A stretch of DNA of 42,423 nucleotides from Candidatus Saccharimonadales bacterium (GCA_038326785.1 JBBQKK010000002.1:1-42423); one strand, 5' to 3'; positions 1 through 37,339 are shown, numbered from the stretch's first letter. Notes: a model not told the origin generated them from the letters alone. Made by a program: numbers and translations.

Positions 1-31
1 TATCTGTTAGTCTTTTAACGAAGATAAATGC

Positions 32-90
32 GGGCTCGTGGTGTAGAGGCCCGGGCATCTTCCTGTCACGGAGGAGATCGCCGGTTCAGA
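32..90 (+). pseudogene. Degenerate 5' two-thirds of a tRNA-Asp(GTC) gene, broken in the T-loop
   Basis: The first 20 nt and a 24-nt block (TGTCACGGAGGAGATCGCCGGTTC) are identical to the intact tRNA-Asp at 218-294. The D-loop and anticodon-stem 5' strand have diverged. Homology ends inside the T-loop (TTCAGA|TAATTG) and no contiguous 3' acceptor strand follows. Confidence 0.6.
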
Positions 91-179
91 TAATTGAAGC
101 GATTATCGACAATTATATGCCGAGCCCGAGATTGCCAAGTCTTATAATAGATAAAAGGCAATCCCGGAGTGAAGCTATT

Positions 180-189
180 ATCCGGTCGG
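180..189 (+). repeat. Isolated tRNA-Asp T-loop/acceptor piece ATCCGGTCGG
   Basis: The same 10-mer occurs inside the intact tRNA-Asp (277-286) and at 365-374. Here it is followed directly by AAATTAACAATTT, not by the rest of the acceptor stem. Confidence 0.55.
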
Positions 190-217
190 AAATTAACAAT
201 TTAGAACTTTGACTGTT

Positions 218-294
218 GGGCTCGTGGTGTAGAGGCCTAACATGCCTCCCTGTCACGGAGGAGATCGCCGGTTCGAATCCGGTCGGGCCCGCCA
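218..294 (+). tRNA. tRNA-Asp (anticodon GTC)
   Basis: The cloverleaf folds by eye: acceptor GGGCTCG/CGGGCCC, anticodon arm CCTCC-CTGTCAC-GGAGG, T arm GCCGG-TTCGAAT-CCGGT, G73 and an encoded CCA. Confidence 0.93.
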
Positions 295-330
295 GTCAAA
301 GCGCTAAATAAATCTTCAAAAGCTCACGCA

Positions 331-380
331 GGATTTTACTCCGAGTAAGATTGCTGAAGTAACCATCCGGTCGGACCCCA
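331..380 (+). repeat. Conserved junction motif (GGATTTTACTCCGAGTAAGATTGCTGAAGTAACC) fused to a displaced tRNA-Asp 3' fragment (ATCCGGTCGGACCCCA)
   Basis: The motif is near-identical to 8565-8598 next to tRNA-Val. The fragment repeats the T-loop-to-3'-end part of tRNA-Asp with two differences and is followed by a T-run. Confidence 0.7.
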
Positions 381-441
381 TTTTTTGTTGTGGATTGGTT
401 CATCTGCGTTTAATATAGTAAAAAGGATAAACATCCATACT

Positions 442-1191
442 ATGGAAAATAAAGAATTAACGCCACAGAATGATACAAGCACACAACCTGCTGCACGGAC
501 CTTATCAGCAGGGGAGAAAGTCATTGAACCCCTTACGCCGGGCTTAAGTATTGAGATGCCGACAGCAACAGAATCTGCTAGTAGCCGTGCCACCGCCGCA
601 ATGCCCATACGTACACAACCGCCAGTCACACCTAATGCAAATCTGCATATTAGTAGTTCAGGTAATGCATTCTTAACGGGTTCGCAAATAGCAGCCGAAA
701 AGAAGAAATTACCTGTAGGTGTATACGTGATCGCGGCCATAAGCTTATTTGGTTTTATCACCGGTTTTATTGACGGCTCACAGACGGGAACAATGTATAC
801 CGTTCTTTTATTTGTTAACCTGTTTTTAGCAATAGGGCTTATATTACGCTTAAATTGGGCGAGGAAATTTATGGTTGTGTTGTCCGCGCTTCTCTTGGTG
901 CTTGCAGCGGGGAGCCTACTATCGTTGGTTGGCTTACAGAGTCGGATGCAACAGAGAAAGGCAGATTATGAAGCCGCTGTCAGTCGCATCGACCAGAACC
1001 GGCTATCACCTTCAGAAAAGAAAACACTGGAAACTACTAGGGAATCTATAGCAAGCGCGGAAAAGCAAACAGGGAATTCGATTGCTGTTACGTATTTTCG
1101 CCTGGGAGGGTCCGTTATTGTGGCGCTGGCCATTATCGTATATCTTACTCGGCCCAATGTTAAAGACATATTCGACAGTTCAGAGGCATAA
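442..1191 (+). CDS. Hypothetical integral membrane protein
   Basis: From ORF 385..1191. I prefer the ATG at 442 because the TTG at 385 lies immediately after the tRNA-fragment repeat (331-380) and its T-run. It has a Thr/Pro/Ala-rich N-terminus followed by several hydrophobic helices. No family recognised. Confidence 0.6.
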   Translation: MENKELTPQNDTSTQPAARTLSAGEKVIEPLTPGLSIEMPTATESASSRATAAMPIRTQPPVTPNANLHISSSGNAFLTGSQIAAEKKKLPVGVYVIAAISLFGFITGFIDGSQTGTMYTVLLFVNLFLAIGLILRLNWARKFMVVLSALLLVLAAGSLLSLVGLQSRMQQRKADYEAAVSRIDQNRLSPSEKKTLETTRESIASAEKQTGNSIAVTYFRLGGSVIVALAIIVYLTRPNVKDIFDSSEA

Positions 1192-8286: not shown

Positions 8287-8313
8287 GTTAACAGGGGCGG
8301 TTGGATCATTTGG
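8287..8313 (+). pseudogene. Degenerate duplicate of the tRNA-Val 5' end with its upstream GTTAAC..CAG context
   Basis: GTTAACAG+GGGGCGGTTGGATCATTTGG compares with GTTAACGAATAACAG+GGGGCGATTAGCTCATTTGG at 8377-8411 (17/20 identical in the tRNA part). tRNA likeness is lost after that. Confidence 0.5.
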
Positions 8314-15750: not shown

Positions 15751-16422
15751 ATGTGGCAAACAATCGAAAACAAGTTATATAAAAAGTTTACCTTCAAAGA
15801 TTTCAATGAAGCGATGGCGTTTATGAATCGAGTTGCTGAAATTGCCGAGCGGCGAAATCACCACCCGACCATGAAAAACACCTGGAACACTGTAGAATTC
15901 TGGCTCAGTACTCATGATGCAGGCGACACTGTGACAGACAAGGATCAAGAGCTTGCGAAGCAAATCGATGAATTAATCGAGCCAGTGGCCAAGCAGGCAA
16001 CTGCGGTTCAGACAACTGGCATTAAGCTGTATGGTGACGGCGGCTCGAGAGGCAATCCGGGGCCTTCTGCATCCGGGTTTGTGCTGCTGGATAAAGACGA
16101 CAACATTATATTCAAAAAAGGCGTATACCTAGGAATTACAACAAATAACCAGGCAGAGTACCTGTCCTTGAAGTTCGGCCTCGAAGAGGCGCGAAAAATG
16201 GGGGCAAGGGAAGTCGATGTGTTTATGGACAGTATGCTCGTCGTGAACCAGATGAAGGGCATATTCAAGGTAAAGAACCGCGACCTATGGCCAATTTATG
16301 AGTCAATCAAAGACATGTTGAGTGATTTCAAGAAGGTCACCTTCACTCACGTACCACGCGAACTGAACAAATTAGCGGATGCTGAAGTCAACTCTACTTT
16401 AGATGCAGAGCTAAAATCATAA
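15751..16422 (+). CDS. Fusion protein: pterin-4a-carbinolamine dehydratase (PCD/DCoH) domain plus RNase HI domain
   Basis: The N-terminal ~95 aa carry FKDFNEAMAFMNRVAEIAERRNHHP..TH (PCD signature). The C-terminal ~130 aa carry DGGSRGNPGPSASG, NNQAEY, DSMLVVNQ and the LADAEVN acidic residues of type 1 RNase H. Confidence 0.8.
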   Translation: MWQTIENKLYKKFTFKDFNEAMAFMNRVAEIAERRNHHPTMKNTWNTVEFWLSTHDAGDTVTDKDQELAKQIDELIEPVAKQATAVQTTGIKLYGDGGSRGNPGPSASGFVLLDKDDNIIFKKGVYLGITTNNQAEYLSLKFGLEEARKMGAREVDVFMDSMLVVNQMKGIFKVKNRDLWPIYESIKDMLSDFKKVTFTHVPRELNKLADAEVNSTLDAELKS

Positions 16423-16452: not shown

Positions 16453-16990
16453 GCCAGATTATCGGCTAATCGCTTGCCCCTCTTGGCGAACGAATAAGGT
16501 GGCGCACACAGAGTGCAGACTCGTGGCCGCTAAGTATCGCTAATCAAGAGGGGTAAGAGGAAAGTCCGGGCAGCGTAGGGAAAGACAGTCGCTAACGGCG
16601 ACCGGGGGCAACCCTAGGGAAAGTGCCACAGAAACAAAACCGCCCTCGCTCTTCACAGGCGAAGAGCATTTAACATTTTTCAGTTAACATTTAACAGTTG
16701 CGGCAGCAATTTCCATAAATGTAAATTGCTAAATGATACATGAAAATTGCTCATCGCTTGCGATGAGCGGGGGTAAGGGTGAAAAGAGTAGGGTAAGAGC
16801 CTACAGTCCCCTATGGTGACATCGGGGAGTGGTAAACCCTGTCTGCTGCAAGGAGATGGACTCCCGTCGGTTAATTCCGGCTGGTTTCCCGCCAGAGTTC
16901 ATCATCAAGAACCCGCTTGAGCCATCGAGCAATTGGTGGACTAGATAGATGATTAGCTAGAACAGAACCCGGCTTACGGATAATCTGGCG
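16453..16990 (+). ncRNA. rnpB: RNase P RNA, bacterial type A, unusually long (~540 nt)
   Basis: Conserved blocks GAGGAAAGTCCGGGC (P4 5'), ACAGAAACAAAACCGCC, GGGTAAGGGTGAAAAGAGTAGGGTAAGAGCCTAC, GGTAAACCC and ACAGAACCCGGCTTA. P1 pairs CCAGATTATC with GATAATCTGG. TGgTATAAT lies just upstream and a terminator is at 16998-17029. Confidence 0.92.
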
Positions 16991-16997
16991 CATGCAC

Positions 16998-17029: not shown

Positions 17030-17135
17030 TGAGAAAACCGAGATAGGTTTTCTCATCGCGCGGTGAAATCAAAGATTTCGCCGGCTGCTCTTTCCTGGGT
17101 AAAGACAAAAATATCTCGGAGTAAATCCGAAATAT
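17028..17135. repeat. Copy 1 of a ~105-nt structured repeat (three hairpins), downstream of rplT
   Basis: About 90 percent identical over 17028-17097 to 18400-18469. The hairpins are ATGAGAAAACC/GGTTTTCTCAT, CGGTGAAATC-AAA-GATTTCGCCG and TCGGA-GTAAA-TCCGA. Confidence 0.7.
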
Positions 17136-18399: not shown

Positions 18400-18505
18400 T
18401 ATAAGGAAACCGAGATAGGTTTCCTTATCGCGCGGTGAAATCAAAGATTTCTCCGGCTGTTCCTTCCTGAAAAAAGTTAAAAATGTGCCGAAGTAAATTC
18501 GTCTC
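18400..18505. repeat. Copy 2 of the ~105-nt structured repeat, between the comM stop and the infC promoter
   Basis: The hairpins are ATAAGGAAACC/GGTTTCCTTAT, CGGTGAAATC-AAA-GATTTCTCCG and CGAA-GTAAA-TTCG. Stem changes relative to copy 1 are compensatory. Confidence 0.7.
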
Positions 18506-32655: not shown

Positions 32656-34217
<1,562 letters not shown>

Positions 34218-34394
34218 TAGGGAGAAACCCAGAGCTATCTGTTTACAGATAGACTCGAGGTCGGTCTCGTAACCAATGCTCGAACTTGATTGGTTGCATT
34301 TTAAAGAGATTAAGTTAGACGTTTGATTTGCACTACTAAGATTTTCAAAAAGCTTTTAATACAGATGACTTTTGCCTAGCGTATAATTATTTAT

Positions 34395-34673
34395 ATGACA
34401 GAACATATTTCGACAGCTATTAATCCCGAAGACGAGTCTCATATATCTGAGGCACAACTAGACGATTGGTTGTCGGTTACTTTTGGCGATTTTAATGACG
34501 AAGTATACGCGCGGCAAGAGATGCACGACGGCTCAGTTGCGGTTATTCATGCGACCCATAGGGGAGTAGTATCCAGAGGCTTAGCTTTCTTAAGAGGCCA
34601 AAGGCCCCAGCCAAAAATACGAACAATTAACGATGCTATATCCCCGCCATATTCGAACACTGAAATACATTAA
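34395..34673 (+). CDS. Hypothetical 92-aa acidic protein encoded inside the 16S-tRNA spacer
   Basis: TATAAT (34382-34387) lies 7 nt upstream of the ATG and there is no SD. No similarity recognised. The hairpin at 34728-34753 follows. Confidence 0.35.
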   Translation: MTEHISTAINPEDESHISEAQLDDWLSVTFGDFNDEVYARQEMHDGSVAVIHATHRGVVSRGLAFLRGQRPQPKIRTINDAISPPYSNTEIH

Positions 34674-34725
34674 TCTTTTAGCAGTTTTAGTTTTTGGTCG
34701 AAAAATAATTTTAATTATAAGTTAA

Positions 34726-34925
34726 GGCCCCCTGACACCGAAATGTCAGGGGGCTGGGGGGAGATGCCGGAGGGGCGGAGAAGCCTTGTTTGCAATCAGC
34801 CGAGGCCGATCAAAAGTTCTTAGCCCTCTAGGGGCGTTGCTGGGCGCCACATTCGGCGCTGATCTGCCGCTGGTTCAGCGGCGCCCAGCTGGGTCCCCCG
34901 ACCCGACGTACAGACCCAAGGAGGT
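34726..34925 (+). other. GC-rich, highly structured ~200-bp island of unknown function
   Basis: It contains CCCCCTGACA-CCGAAA-TGTCAGGGGG, nested helices CTGGGCGCC...GGCGCCCAG enclosing GCCGCTG-GTT-CAGCGGC, and GGGTC-CCC-GACCC. Both flanks are AT-rich. Confidence 0.4.
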
Positions 34926-35002
34926 CTAGTAATAATATTATCACAGCTATTCCTGAATAGACTTATAGCTTAATTTTAGATACAATACCCCTGTTCTTTT
35001 AA

Positions 35003-35037
35003 GGGTTTGTAGCTCAGCTGGTTAGAGCACGTCAGTG
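35003..35037 (+). pseudogene. 5' half (to the anticodon loop) of a second tRNA-Ile-like gene
   Basis: GGGTTTGTAGCTCAGCTGGTTAGAGCACGTCAGTG matches the intact tRNA-Ile at 30 of 35 positions. Its acceptor strand is complementary to 35276-35282. Confidence 0.7.
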
Positions 35038-35058
35038 TTATTTAACAATTTGGGGTAA

Positions 35059-35135
35059 GGGCACGTAGCTCAGCTGGTTAGAGCGCGTCACTGATAATGA
35101 CGAGGTCCCTGGTTCGAGTCCAGGCGCGCCCACCA
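35059..35135 (+). tRNA. tRNA-Ile (anticodon GAT)
   Basis: Anticodon arm CGTCA-CTGATAA-TGACG, T arm CCTGG-TTCGAGT-CCAGG and an encoded CCA. The acceptor GGGCACG/CGCGCCC contains an A5.C68 mismatch. Confidence 0.88.
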
Positions 35136-35231
35136 AATGGTTAAATGTATCAGGTATTTTATCCTGATATAATGACGTATTTAACTTGCTTGCGCGAAGA
35201 TAAATCTTCTTGCAAGGCCAAGCAAGGAAAA

Positions 35232-35288
35232 CGTAAATGTCCCCCGGACATTTACGGGTCGCAGGTTCGAGTCCTGCCAAACCCACCA
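35232..35288 (+). pseudogene. 3' half of the split tRNA-Ile-like gene, preceded by an 11-bp junction hairpin
   Basis: CGTAAATGTCC-CCC-GGACATTTACG, then GGTC, T arm GCAGG-TTCGAGT-CCTGC, acceptor CAAACCC, A and CCA. Confidence 0.7.
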
Positions 35289-35291
35289 TAT

Positions 35292-35368
35292 GGGGCATTA
35301 GCTCAGCTGGTTAGAGCACCTGCTTTGCAAGTAGGGGGTCGTCGGTTCGAATCCGACATGCTCCACCA
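35292..35368 (+). tRNA. tRNA-Ala (anticodon TGC)
   Basis: Acceptor GGGGCAT/ATGCTCC with a G3.U70 pair, anticodon loop TTTGCAA, T arm GTCGG-TTCGAAT-CCGAC and an encoded CCA. Confidence 0.93.
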
Positions 35369-35393
35369 TCGCAAAGGCACGGCCTTTGGGACA

Positions 35394-35440
35394 AGAACCT
35401 AACGATAGAATGAATCTGCCGTTAGGTTCTTTGTCTTTGT
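35394..35440 (+). terminator. Terminator ending the 16S-tRNA transcription unit
   Basis: An 11-bp stem (AGAACCTAACG with CGTTAGGTTCT) followed by TTGTCTTTGT. Confidence 0.7.
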
Positions 35441-35626
35441 GGTCGGCCTCTGCTCCTCCGTTTTGTAGAGCTCCCCACAAAACGGAATAAACCAAAATCG
35501 CAGCTGCGCATGAAATAGAATAGACCGAGCGTCAAGGTTCTATATCTGAGAAAAAGGAGATGGGTAAGTATTGACTAAATTAAGCAAAAGTAGTATAATC
35601 TAGCTAAATCTAAAGGAGTTCGTAAG

Positions 35627-37339
35627 GTGAGGAACAATCCCCTAAGCGCAGTTCGCAAGTTTATTCCTATATTTTTAGCGTCTTTTCTTATTGCCAGCCC
35701 TAGTCTGGTCGGTAACCTTATTTTTCCGATTCAACATGGCTCCCCTCAATCTGTAAGCAAGTACCAAAAAAACAAGCTACACCTTAAGATTGATCCTGCC
35801 AGCGATGTAACTTTGATAAACGGTAGTTTTAGCGGTAATCCTGCTGACCAAGTTACCCAGCTTAACCAAATAATTAGCTCTGGCGGCAAAATCAAAGCCG
35901 AAAAGCTAAAAAATACTGCCGGCCAATCTGATATTGCCAAAAAACTAGATAACGCCCTAAACGGTTACTTTGTAATCACCTTTAAGGGCGATACTGATAT
36001 TAATAGTGTTATTTCCCAGCTAAAAGGCTTATCTATAGTAGAAACAGCTTACGGCGAACCTACGGCCGCGCCAGCGCCATCTAGCCCTAGTTTTGTTAAC
36101 TTACAGAGCTATTTGCAGACTGCTCCGACTGGCATTAATTCTACATCTGCCAAGGCTTACCCTGGTGGCAATGGTTCTAACGTGCGGATTTTTGATATTG
36201 AATATAGCTGGAACGTTAACCACGAAGATATTACCAAGGCCCGTACGGCACTAATAGCTAACGGCACGCCCAATGACCCGTTTAGTGATAATAATCACGG
36301 TACAGCCGTAATGGGGATACTTGTCGCTGATGATAATGCTTATGGCGTCACAGGAGCGGCTTCTGGCGCGTCTTTGGGGCTTATCAATGTTAATGATGTT
36401 GAACGCGGTTACGACCCGGTAGGCGCCCTGAGTGCGGCTGCTGCTTACGCCAAGCCCGGAGATGTCATCAATATAGACCAACAGACCTGGGGCCCTACTA
36501 CTGATACTTACGATTTTGTTCCTGTTGAATGGATCCCCGAAGTCTACGATGCCATCAAAACCCTTACAGCTAACGGTGTTATTGTGGTGGAATCGGCTGG
36601 TAATGGCTACCAGAACCTAGATGACCCAACCTATTACGGAACCTCCTTCCCGATGGGCAAGGCTGATTCTGACGCGCTGATAGTAGGAGCTGGCGAAAAT
36701 TGTTATACACCTAAACTATCTCGCATCAGTTACAGTGACTACGGCAAGCGCGTAAACCTGCAAGGCCCTGGCGATTGCGTTGCCACAACTGGTTGGTACG
36801 GCGATTTATACAGCGCTGGTGGCGTAAACGCTTACTACACCCAAAGCTTTAACGGAACCAGCTCAGCGACTCCGGTCGTTTCGGCCGCTGCGGCCGATGT
36901 TAGTTCGGCCTATAAGGCCAAAAACGGGATATTTGCTACTGTTGCTCAAATCCGCGACATTCTATCGCGCGATTCTACCGCCCAAGACACCTCAGCTAGT
37001 GGCCACATCGGTCCGATGCCGGACCTTGATAAGGCCATGAAAGAAATTAGTGCTACTACATCTGGCGATATTACGCCTCCTAGCACGCCTCAGAATCTAA
37101 AAGCTATTCTAAGTAAACAAGGTAAACCAGTGTTAGCTTGGAGCGCTTCTACCGATAACGTCAAGGTTTCTGGCTACAAGGTCTATAGAAATGGCGTCTA
37201 TTACACTACTGTTGGGGCTACCAGTTTTACAGATACTTCAGTAAGCAGACGCACCACTTATAAGTATCAAGTCCAGGCAATAGATACATCGGGCAACAAT
37301 TCGGCTCTATCGGCTCAAGTTTCTATAACTACTAGGTAA
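35627..37339 (+). CDS. Secreted subtilisin-like (S8) serine peptidase with a C-terminal fibronectin type III domain
   Basis: GTG start after AAAGGAG, a signal peptide, and the triad context FDIEYSW (Asp), NNHGTAVMG (His) and GTSSATP (Ser). The C-terminal part PPSTPQNL...YKVYRNG...YKYQVQAIDTSGN is FN3-like. Confidence 0.85.
   Translation: MRNNPLSAVRKFIPIFLASFLIASPSLVGNLIFPIQHGSPQSVSKYQKNKLHLKIDPASDVTLINGSFSGNPADQVTQLNQIISSGGKIKAEKLKNTAGQSDIAKKLDNALNGYFVITFKGDTDINSVISQLKGLSIVETAYGEPTAAPAPSSPSFVNLQSYLQTAPTGINSTSAKAYPGGNGSNVRIFDIEYSWNVNHEDITKARTALIANGTPNDPFSDNNHGTAVMGILVADDNAYGVTGAASGASLGLINVNDVERGYDPVGALSAAAAYAKPGDVINIDQQTWGPTTDTYDFVPVEWIPEVYDAIKTLTANGVIVVESAGNGYQNLDDPTYYGTSFPMGKADSDALIVGAGENCYTPKLSRISYSDYGKRVNLQGPGDCVATTGWYGDLYSAGGVNAYYTQSFNGTSSATPVVSAAAADVSSAYKAKNGIFATVAQIRDILSRDSTAQDTSASGHIGPMPDLDKAMKEISATTSGDITPPSTPQNLKAILSKQGKPVLAWSASTDNVKVSGYKVYRNGVYYTTVGATSFTDTSVSRRTTYKYQVQAIDTSGNNSALSAQVSITTR

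Follow-up and report, generated by a model that had tools for sequence, protein, structure and literature searches.

Genomic islands that enter tRNA genes by means of a tyrosine integrase restore the gene that they occupy, and the displaced fragment of that gene marks the end of the island (PMC4383910). Integron cassette arrays, such as those with folded attC sites of the Vibrio VCR type, grow by serial insertion at a fixed site with the newest unit proximal, consist of single co-oriented genes or empty cassettes, and end each cassette in an imperfect hairpin that is highly similar within a genome and whose structure is kept by compensatory changes and conserved mismatches (PMC4889954). We analyzed a tRNA-Asp locus (positions 32 to 380) in a stretch of 42,423 nucleotides (nt) from a Candidatus Saccharimonadales bacterium (GCA_038326785.1 JBBQKK010000002.1:1-42423; hereafter the window), together with related loci, named L001 to L022, that were fetched for comparison; coordinates without such a label are those of the window. 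The layout at these loci shares the displaced-fragment logic of islands (PMC4383910) and the array and hairpin logic of integrons (PMC4889954), but departs from what defines either system, lacking an integrase and attC core sites and having an interrupted distal site.

As at tRNA-gene islands, the target tRNA is restored by element-borne sequence and a displaced 3′ fragment lies in direct orientation at the far end (277–294 of the intact gene versus 365–380 and 180–189), tandem arrays form at one tRNA gene, and accessory and toxin-antitoxin genes accompany them. Unlike islands, the units measure only 90 to 190 nt or hold a single gene, one end module serves many tRNA genes, no integrase lies beside the att-like sites, and these sites are not uninterrupted: the distal T-arm copy is broken within the T-loop by the module in 25 of 25 copies, with an antisense copy before it. 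The features listed above for integrons have counterparts here, the single co-oriented genes in a few cases only, but no intI with an adjacent attI and promoter (Pc) was found in the window or the fetched loci, the RYYYAAC/GTTRRRY core sites are missing from the module, a tRNA gene serves as the anchor, and the cassettes carry tRNA-specific arms.

Elements of the CTX-phage type integrate as folded single-stranded DNA via Xer recombinases. At one end of such an element, antisense and sense copies of the target site are able to pair as a double-stranded imitation of the chromosomal site with an irregular center, and successive elements stack at the same site, both as in the loci analyzed here; their target is dif and they are phage genomes of several kb, whereas the present target is a tRNA gene and no phage genes are involved. 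Insertion 3′ of a fixed short sequence without target duplication, subterminal hairpins, and a conserved scaffold followed by target-matching sequence, resembling a scaffold plus guide, recall the IS200/IS605 family, its miniature derivatives, and TnpB guide RNAs. That family does not duplicate a tRNA 3′ end, and no tnpA or tnpB open reading frame (ORF) lies within or beside the units; a homing RNA of this kind (TnpB or CAST-like) was rejected on these grounds, on the lack of cas genes, and because the would-be guide fragment decays. An IS110 bridge RNA was likewise set aside, given the excessive length of the arms and the lack of a recombinase gene. Rickettsia palindromic elements and the intervening sequences of rRNA also consist of a short extended hairpin in a structured RNA gene, at a single point that tolerates it, but the interrupted copies here are truncated, nonfunctional, and always accompanied by a duplicated tRNA 3′ end and a terminator. 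Searches of the open-access literature for tRNA introns, cassettes, or islands in this lineage returned no description of the layout.

A recurrent layout at tRNA genes of Saccharibacteria

The layout recurs in 25 copies from about 15 Saccharibacteria assemblies; the nearest relatives of the source organism, represented by L001 and L002, have 73% protein identity to it. In order, an intact tRNA gene is followed by an intrinsic terminator whose stem reaches into the CCA, a segment antisense to the T arm, a small GC hairpin, the T-stem 5′ strand with GGTTCGA, a 52-nt module, the dinucleotide AT, and then the T-stem 3′ strand, acceptor 3′ strand, and CCA of the same tRNA, with TCGAACC and GGTTCGA on either side of the small hairpin forming an inverted repeat of the T-arm 5′ half. 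It is carried by genes for tRNA-Asp, Val, Glu, Tyr, Arg(TCG), Arg(GCG), Ser(GCT), and others, including one unnamed, and about one-third of the tRNA genes in the fetched loci have a unit. The module-bearing copies begin at about nt 44 to 49 and are without D and anticodon arms, and nearly all of them adjoin an intact gene for the same tRNA, which the 3′ fragment behind the module matches at all loci where that gene was in the sequence. When intact, the displaced tRNA 3′ end measures 16 to 20 nt, and exact repeats of 18 to 20 nt were found for tRNA-Val of the window, L008, and L013.

In every copy the module joins between T-loop nt 58 and 59, always after TT(C/T)(G/A)A, and the junction shows neither duplication nor ambiguity; the junctions between module and ATCC at 364/365 and 8598/8599 are the same as those of the related copies. 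The same fragments, junctions, and module are present in independent assemblies from NCBI, ENA, JGI, and Logan, and the two sequencing runs behind L001 and L002 gave concordant results.

A survey of genomes and metagenomes with a DNA pattern built from three module copies returned 10 sites in 9 genome loci, plus 5 metagenome loci, and all named genomes with such sites but one are Saccharibacteria. The lone exception, L013 (labeled Limnocylindria), is identical over the aligned ~390 nt to L016, a region of a 294-kb metagenome contig, and its contig may be mis-binned. Two distant relatives, L021 (5468–5700, tRNA-Thr(CGT)) and L022 (2554–2830, tRNA-Asp), have the same layout with other modules; the distal fragment of L022 contains an extra insert of 22 nt between the T-stem and acceptor strands. 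In L021, the distal T-stem 3′ strand is preceded by an AT that does not derive from the tRNA, since the T-loop of the latter (TTCGATC) has TC at this place; the tRNA-specific repeat may hence start at nt 61. A reverse-transcription stop at m1A58 as the source of the 18-nt fragment was rejected, since it would leave this AT, as well as the T-stem 5′ strand beyond the module, unexplained.

Gain of units, ordered arrays, and accessory genes

Orthologous tRNA-Tyr loci differ by the clean presence or absence of one unit. L018 equals L013/L016 plus 159 nt, made up of an 18-nt tRNA 3′ end, a terminator, and a different module, and the additional unit occupies the 58/59 point precisely, with the tRNA body on one side and the older unit on the other. 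Within the older unit, L013 and L018 are identical in the 3′ fragment and in the T-stem 5′ strand with TTCGA (100% each) and 94% identical in the module, where the difference is compensatory, with identities of 84% in the terminator, 48% in the left arm, and 44% in the downstream flank. Arrays in which the fragments are shorter or more mutated with distance from the tRNA were found at tRNA-Val of the window and in L009, L011, and L001.

Single genes lie between successive boundaries of module and fragment in three loci, encoding an ANT(2″)-like nucleotidyltransferase (L011), a Fic-like protein (L001), and a GIY-YIG nuclease (L006), all co-oriented with the tRNA, and ParE toxins are encoded just beyond the array in L010 and L013. 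In L006 (6141–6712, minus strand), the region between the tRNA and the module-bearing distal copy contains three tandem repeats of ~37 nt along with the gene for the nuclease, which is 88 amino acids (aa) long. The slot between the tRNA-Asp array and a conserved 407-aa gene is also variable: in the window it is occupied by a cargo-like ORF for an uncharacterized membrane protein without a Pfam family (443–1191, plus strand), in L001 by the unrelated Fic-like gene and a second module, and in L022 by four other genes, whereas the ~80 nt directly preceding the 407-aa gene show conservation between the window and L001. For two proteins of the window, exact look-ups returned no match. Single co-oriented genes each followed by a folded site are present in L011, L001, L006, and possibly the window, which are few cases beside many empty units.

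The 52-nt module is a selected hairpin

The module (consensus TCTTCGAGGACGCGCACAGGAACTTGTTCCGAGCACGCCGCAAGAAGTAAAC) starts with TCTTC and ends with GAAGTAA(A/C/T)C (GAAGTAAAC), giving the junction AAC/ATCC. In an alignment of 14 copies, 96% of the cells in the hairpin are paired and 6 pairs are changed on both sides, compared with 27% to 50% paired cells in controls in which the partner was slid by 1 to 3 columns, and no shuffle reached the observed covariation score. The module is therefore a selected hairpin. Positions 13/35 and 16/32 are mismatched in every copy indexed by hand from the inspected alignment; the conserved A.C and C.A mismatches of the plus strand would be G.U pairs on the minus strand. 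For most module copies the fold of the minus strand is the more stable, whereas wobble pairs in the neighboring arm favor the plus strand. Together, the antisense arm, the sense arm, and the module are predicted to fold as a three-way junction.

A covariance model (R1) built from the module copies of the relatives matches 25 copies among the collected sequences. An earlier note on this DNA had proposed profiling a motif at 331–364, without recognizing that this motif covers the 3′ two-thirds of the conserved and base-paired 52-nt module. Within the window, R1 matches 305–368 with 64.5 bits (E = 6e-17) and 8539–8602 with 79.4 bits, and a partial match at 8702–8741 corresponds to a related second module type. 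Searches against Rfam 15 recovered only tRNA, 16S, and RNase P from the window at the gathering score; the module went unmatched in L007, L008, and L017 (E ≤ 1) and in window 1–450 (E ≤ 10). With its 52 nt and no Rfam match, the module is not a group I intron; a hammerhead or other small ribozyme was rejected as well, since CUGAAGA occurs in the tRNA-Val copy only.

Structure of the tRNA-Asp locus

The window is an entire contig, which places the tRNA-Asp locus 31 nt from the contig end. All the elements that the earlier note had listed for 32–380 are present at the positions it gave, and all lie on the plus strand. The locus begins with the dead 5′ part (nt 1 to 58) of an older tRNA-Asp copy (copy 1, 32–90), which ends in the T-loop as TTCAGA and shares 2 identity blocks with the intact gene (32–51 versus 218–237, 20 of 20 positions; 62–87 versus 249–274, 26 of 26). 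Between the blocks it differs in the D-loop and in the anticodon stem, where 1 nt is deleted, and it was recognized as a tRNA neither by ARAGORN nor by Rfam, even at E ≤ 10. In place of nt 59 to 65 stands an AT-rich hairpin (91–120; ATAATTG/CAATTAT, inverted repeat I4 at 90–116), and no homologues of the segment 88–220, which includes it, were found across the fetched loci. The adjoining CGAGCCCG (121–128) is the perfect complement of GGGCTCG and is identical to the acceptor 3′ strand plus G73 of the tRNA-Asp genes in L015 and L017 (CGAGCCCGCCA), and CCA stands at 135–137; judged by this resemblance, 121–137 probably preserves the acceptor 3′ strand, G73, and CCA of copy 1 as a remnant into which 6 nt were inserted. 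The remainder appears to be a decayed unit interior (138–179), whose final 10 nt, TGAAGCTATT, faintly resemble the module end TGAAGTAACC as part of direct repeat D3 (170–190 versus 355–375); R1 gives no module match in this interior.

Repeat searches place a displaced 3′ fragment of tRNA-Asp, stopping after 10 nt (nt 59 to 68), at 180–189. It is followed by the leader of the intact gene (190–217), which contains AAATTAACAATTT, similar to TTATTTAACAATTT upstream of tRNA-Ile, and pairs with the trailer (inverted repeat I1, 199–224 with 284–309, 81% complementary). The intact tRNA-Asp(GTC), copy 2, occupies 218–294 (ARAGORN; Rfam, 59.7 bits), with its T-loop 58/59 junction at 276/277. Its 18-nt trailer (295–312), delimited by comparison with the tRNA-Asp units of L012, L015, and L017, is without the terminator and left arm present in these units, which we read as deleted. 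Next come a divergent variant of the type 1 module (313–364), homologous to 8547–8598, and the outermost displaced 3′ fragment, ATCCGGTCGGACCCCA (365–380; nt 59 to 76 with 1 mismatch and a 2-nt deletion), which abuts the module as in the 25 related copies and is directly followed by a T run (381–386). Farther out, just before the ATG at 443, TAAACATCC (406–436) is like a module end and fragment start (R1, 9.9 bits, E = 0.05) and could be a further remnant or a chance match. The syntenic site of L001 carries GCCGGTTCGA, 52 nt, and ATCCGGTCGGGCCCGCCA in this order; it has no CTGTCAC anticodon loop, and an intact tRNA-Asp is absent from this locus and from that of L014.

The 10-mer ATCCGGTCGG, nt 59 to 68 of tRNA-Asp, had been described as occurring twice and flanking a 175-bp unit (190–364) that carries the tRNA. 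There are in fact 3 copies, at 180–189, inside the tRNA at 277–286, and at 365–374, and the unit of the relatives extends from tRNA nt 59 to the end of the 52-nt module. The suggestion that the 10-mer is an att core or a target-site duplication holds insofar as it behaves like an att-type core, but it is not a duplication of fixed length, the repeat being the 3′ end of the tRNA itself. Its copy number alone is not significant, since 3 matches with at most 1 mismatch in the whole window were reached in 14 of 100 shuffles; the expectation for an exact 10-mer is about 0.08 occurrences in the window, and all 3 copies lie within 200 nt at tRNA-homologous junctions. The 2 outer copies have the context TGAAGnnnnnATCCGGTCGGA in common (D3), and direct repeat D4 relates 277–290 to 365–378 (13 of 14 identical). 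The broader proposal, according to which events recurred at a single T-loop position and left their record in order at this locus, agrees with the presence or absence of a unit at 58/59 of tRNA-Tyr, the arrays at several loci, and their varying cargo.

The window contains 2 further loci of this kind. Downstream of tRNA-Val (8392–8468), a terminator and a T-arm-like stretch precede a type 1 module (8547–8598; 329–368 versus 8563–8602, 35 of 40 identical), directly followed by an exact copy of the 18-nt tRNA-Val 3′ end (8599–8616, 18 of 18). A second terminator, 78% identical to the first with compensatory changes in the stem, belongs to the same array, which continues outward with a type 2 module and a 9-nt fragment (8763–8771) and then a module remnant with an 11-nt fragment (8830–8858), so that a structured segment precedes each shorter fragment; the outermost of these (8848–8858) matches at 10 of 11 positions. 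Upstream of the gene lies a 5′ tRNA fragment (8294–8313). The tRNA-Val array (8289–8858) is clearer than the tRNA-Asp array and is succeeded by ~800 nt of AT-rich noncoding DNA up to 9660. tRNA-Ile (35059–35135) is nested in an older split tRNA, with the 5′ half at 35003–35037 and a 3′ part ending in CAAACCCACCA at 35256–35288, and the acceptor halves GGGTTTG and CAAACCC are perfectly complementary. A structured insert of 78 nt near this gene (35178–35255) matches a module of L018 (5629–5651) at 23 of 23 positions, on the opposite strand.

Serial cassette insertion and alternative explanations

We propose, at about even confidence, that small cassettes were inserted one after another, in a fixed orientation, into the 3′ part of tRNA-Asp, and that the window locus preserves a decayed record of these events. 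The fixed junction, the gain of a unit, the ordered arrays, the cargo, and the selected hairpin are observed; we infer the recombination itself, and its enzymology as well, because no recombinase was found. In the relatives, an intact unit starts with a fresh tRNA 3′ end (nt 59 or 61 to 76, CCA) and an intrinsic terminator, may hold one co-oriented accessory gene, and ends with the inverted repeat of the T-arm 5′ half and the 52-nt module, abutting the displaced old tRNA 3′ end. Each new unit would enter beside the tRNA body and leave the tRNA intact, and older units and their 3′ fragments would move outward. Insertion may proceed by att-type recombination, with the crossover within nt 59(61) to 76, the segment common to cassette and target, as a crossover there would give the observed products. 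The cassette site can be pictured as a folded three-way junction similar to attC or to the CTX-phage site, in which the antisense and sense arms would rebuild the double-stranded T arm of the tRNA gene while the 52-nt hairpin protrudes at 58/59, and the recombining enzyme would act in trans. Applied to the window, the order would be the old tRNA-Asp 5′ part (32–90), a decayed unit 1 (91–179), the truncated fragment at 180–189, unit 2 (190–364) with a complete tRNA-Asp and an intact module, and finally the original or oldest 3′ end (365–380). The presence of a second tRNA-Asp gene would have left the first copy free to decay.

Several results weigh against this explanation. No Phage_integrase or recombinase domain was found in the window ORFs scanned, and neither a tyrosine or serine integrase nor a transposase or reverse transcriptase lies in the window or beside any related unit; the only recombinase seen is Xer-like, on the 5′ side of another tRNA in L012, and tblastn with it gave no match in the other loci. 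The module was not found in 2.9 million viral contigs, nor by BLAST in phage and plasmid collections (a stricter first DNA pattern matched no viral or genome contigs, and a looser second one no viral contigs), and no free or circular cassette was detected. Which strand of the module folds is ambiguous. The 5′ pseudo-copy at 32–90 needs an extra assumption, either a tRNA-carrying cassette or a local duplication, because the model yields 3′ fragments only. Finally, in one genome a near-identical module adjoins no fewer than 4 different tRNA genes, which argues against a classical sequence-specific integrase and leaves open recognition of a generic T-loop or targeting by the cassette's own arms. 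The latter would explain how one module can serve many tRNA genes, and we tentatively advance the wider claim, possible rather than probable, that Saccharibacteria carry integron-like, tRNA-anchored gene cassettes that enter at T-loop 58/59 and are recognized via a folded three-way junction (sense and antisense T-arm copies of the target tRNA around the conserved 52-nt hairpin), the target being set by the nucleic-acid arms of the cassette and not by an integrase.

A host RNA function would account equally well for the in-place conservation of the module. The unit might then be the gene of a structured noncoding RNA that the host retains; as a three-way-junction RNA, it would reproduce the 3′ third of the neighboring tRNA (T arm, acceptor 3′ strand, and CCA) with the 52-nt hairpin in the T-loop, and it may act as a decoy, processing signal, or regulatory element for the tRNA, the fragments in the window being decayed paralogues. 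The compensatory changes in the hairpin, the retention of the module and the adjacent T-stem strand while the flanks diverge, the same layout with different modules in distant relatives, and the lack of a mobility enzyme would all suit such an RNA, as would the fold of the T-loop, which tolerates extra nucleotides at 58/59. However, decayed tandem arrays, accessory genes between units, and clean insertion polymorphism are unexpected of a housekeeping RNA. Only about a third of the tRNA genes in the fetched loci have a unit, decay of the distal 3′ fragments is unconstrained, an intrinsic terminator precedes the unit and no consistent promoter was found in the scanned window 1–600, and no Rfam family matches. 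We regard a host RNA as unlikely. For the window locus only, a local tandem duplication of ~186 bp, comprising the leader, tRNA-Asp, the downstream unit, and the fragment, followed by decay of the upstream copy, would dispense with a tRNA-carrying cassette. The near-equal spacing of the 3 repeat families (186, 187, and 185 nt) hints at such an event, which is a further point against serial insertion, and 5′ fragments are also found upstream of tRNA-Val and tRNA-Ile of the window. Yet the 88–89 nt between the T-loop break and the fragment show only chance-level similarity between the 2 units, whereas the flanking tRNA parts are 90% to 100% identical, and the module family, arrays, and polymorphism of the relatives would go unexplained; a simple tandem duplication was rejected as the whole story for the former reason, and we consider this account decidedly unlikely. 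It fits serial cassette insertion solely as the origin of the 5′ copy: the second tRNA-Asp gene could equally have come from a local 186-bp duplication, with the constant spacing for and the unrelated middle against it.

Ordinary attL/attR scars of large prophages or islands, integrated at the T-loop by a tyrosine integrase and later almost fully deleted, would leave an intact tRNA and displaced 3′ fragments in direct orientation, the classic signature (PMC4383910), and ParE toxins and accessory genes are nearby. Random deletions would not produce the same small layout (~90 to 190 nt or one gene) at more than 20 loci, though, and a T-loop crossover by a tyrosine recombinase would not yield a distal T-arm copy split inside the T-loop by a module; as neither integrase genes nor their remnants are seen and the module is absent from viral, phage, and plasmid sequences, such scars are improbable. 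The interrupted copies could also be functional tRNA genes with a T-loop intron or intervening sequence, or halves of split tRNAs, given the precise insertion without duplication at a fixed tRNA position and the loci without an intact tRNA-Asp (L001 and L014). This reading is close to refuted: the module-bearing copies are without D and anticodon arms, for which reason an archaeal-type intron or split tRNA was rejected, the flanks do not rebuild a complete cloverleaf, nearly all copies adjoin an intact gene for the same tRNA, and by inspection no bulge-helix-bulge can be drawn at the junctions. We give next to no weight to an assembly artefact from a chimeric or collapsed repeat, which the position 31 nt from the contig end might suggest, since like fragments, junctions, and modules are found inside the contig at tRNA-Val and tRNA-Ile and in independent assemblies.

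Other features of the window

A direct repeat of 63 nt, 92% identical, lies on either side of rplT-infC (17035–17097 and 18407–18469); it has no Rfam match and may be an element of the ribosomal-protein leader type. The class A RNase P RNA (16529–16993, 205.7 bits) measures 465 nt versus a model of 367 positions, implying about 100 nt of insertions. At 32656–37339, the 16S rRNA, tRNA-Ile, and tRNA-Ala genes are followed by a subtilase gene instead of 23S rRNA, and the rRNA operon thus appears to be split. The ORF at 15751–16422 encodes a pterin-4a-carbinolamine dehydratase domain fused to an RNase H-like (RVT_3) domain.

Implications

The genomes of Saccharibacteria are tiny, most of their tRNA genes are single-copy, and few mobile elements have been recognized in them; the way in which they gain and lose accessory genes is poorly understood. 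The window locus is a degraded example, valuable mainly as a pointer to the family. Should the unit be a host RNA, it would represent a new class of tRNA-linked RNA. If the cassette explanation is true, gene flow in Saccharibacteria would have a compact route in tiny cassettes whose insertion renews the tRNA 3′ end; the family would explain fragmented tRNA loci that confuse annotation and would place a conserved folded module of DNA or RNA among the elements worth testing, and, if the tRNA-specific arms set the target, it would be a natural example of insertion programmed by nucleic acid.

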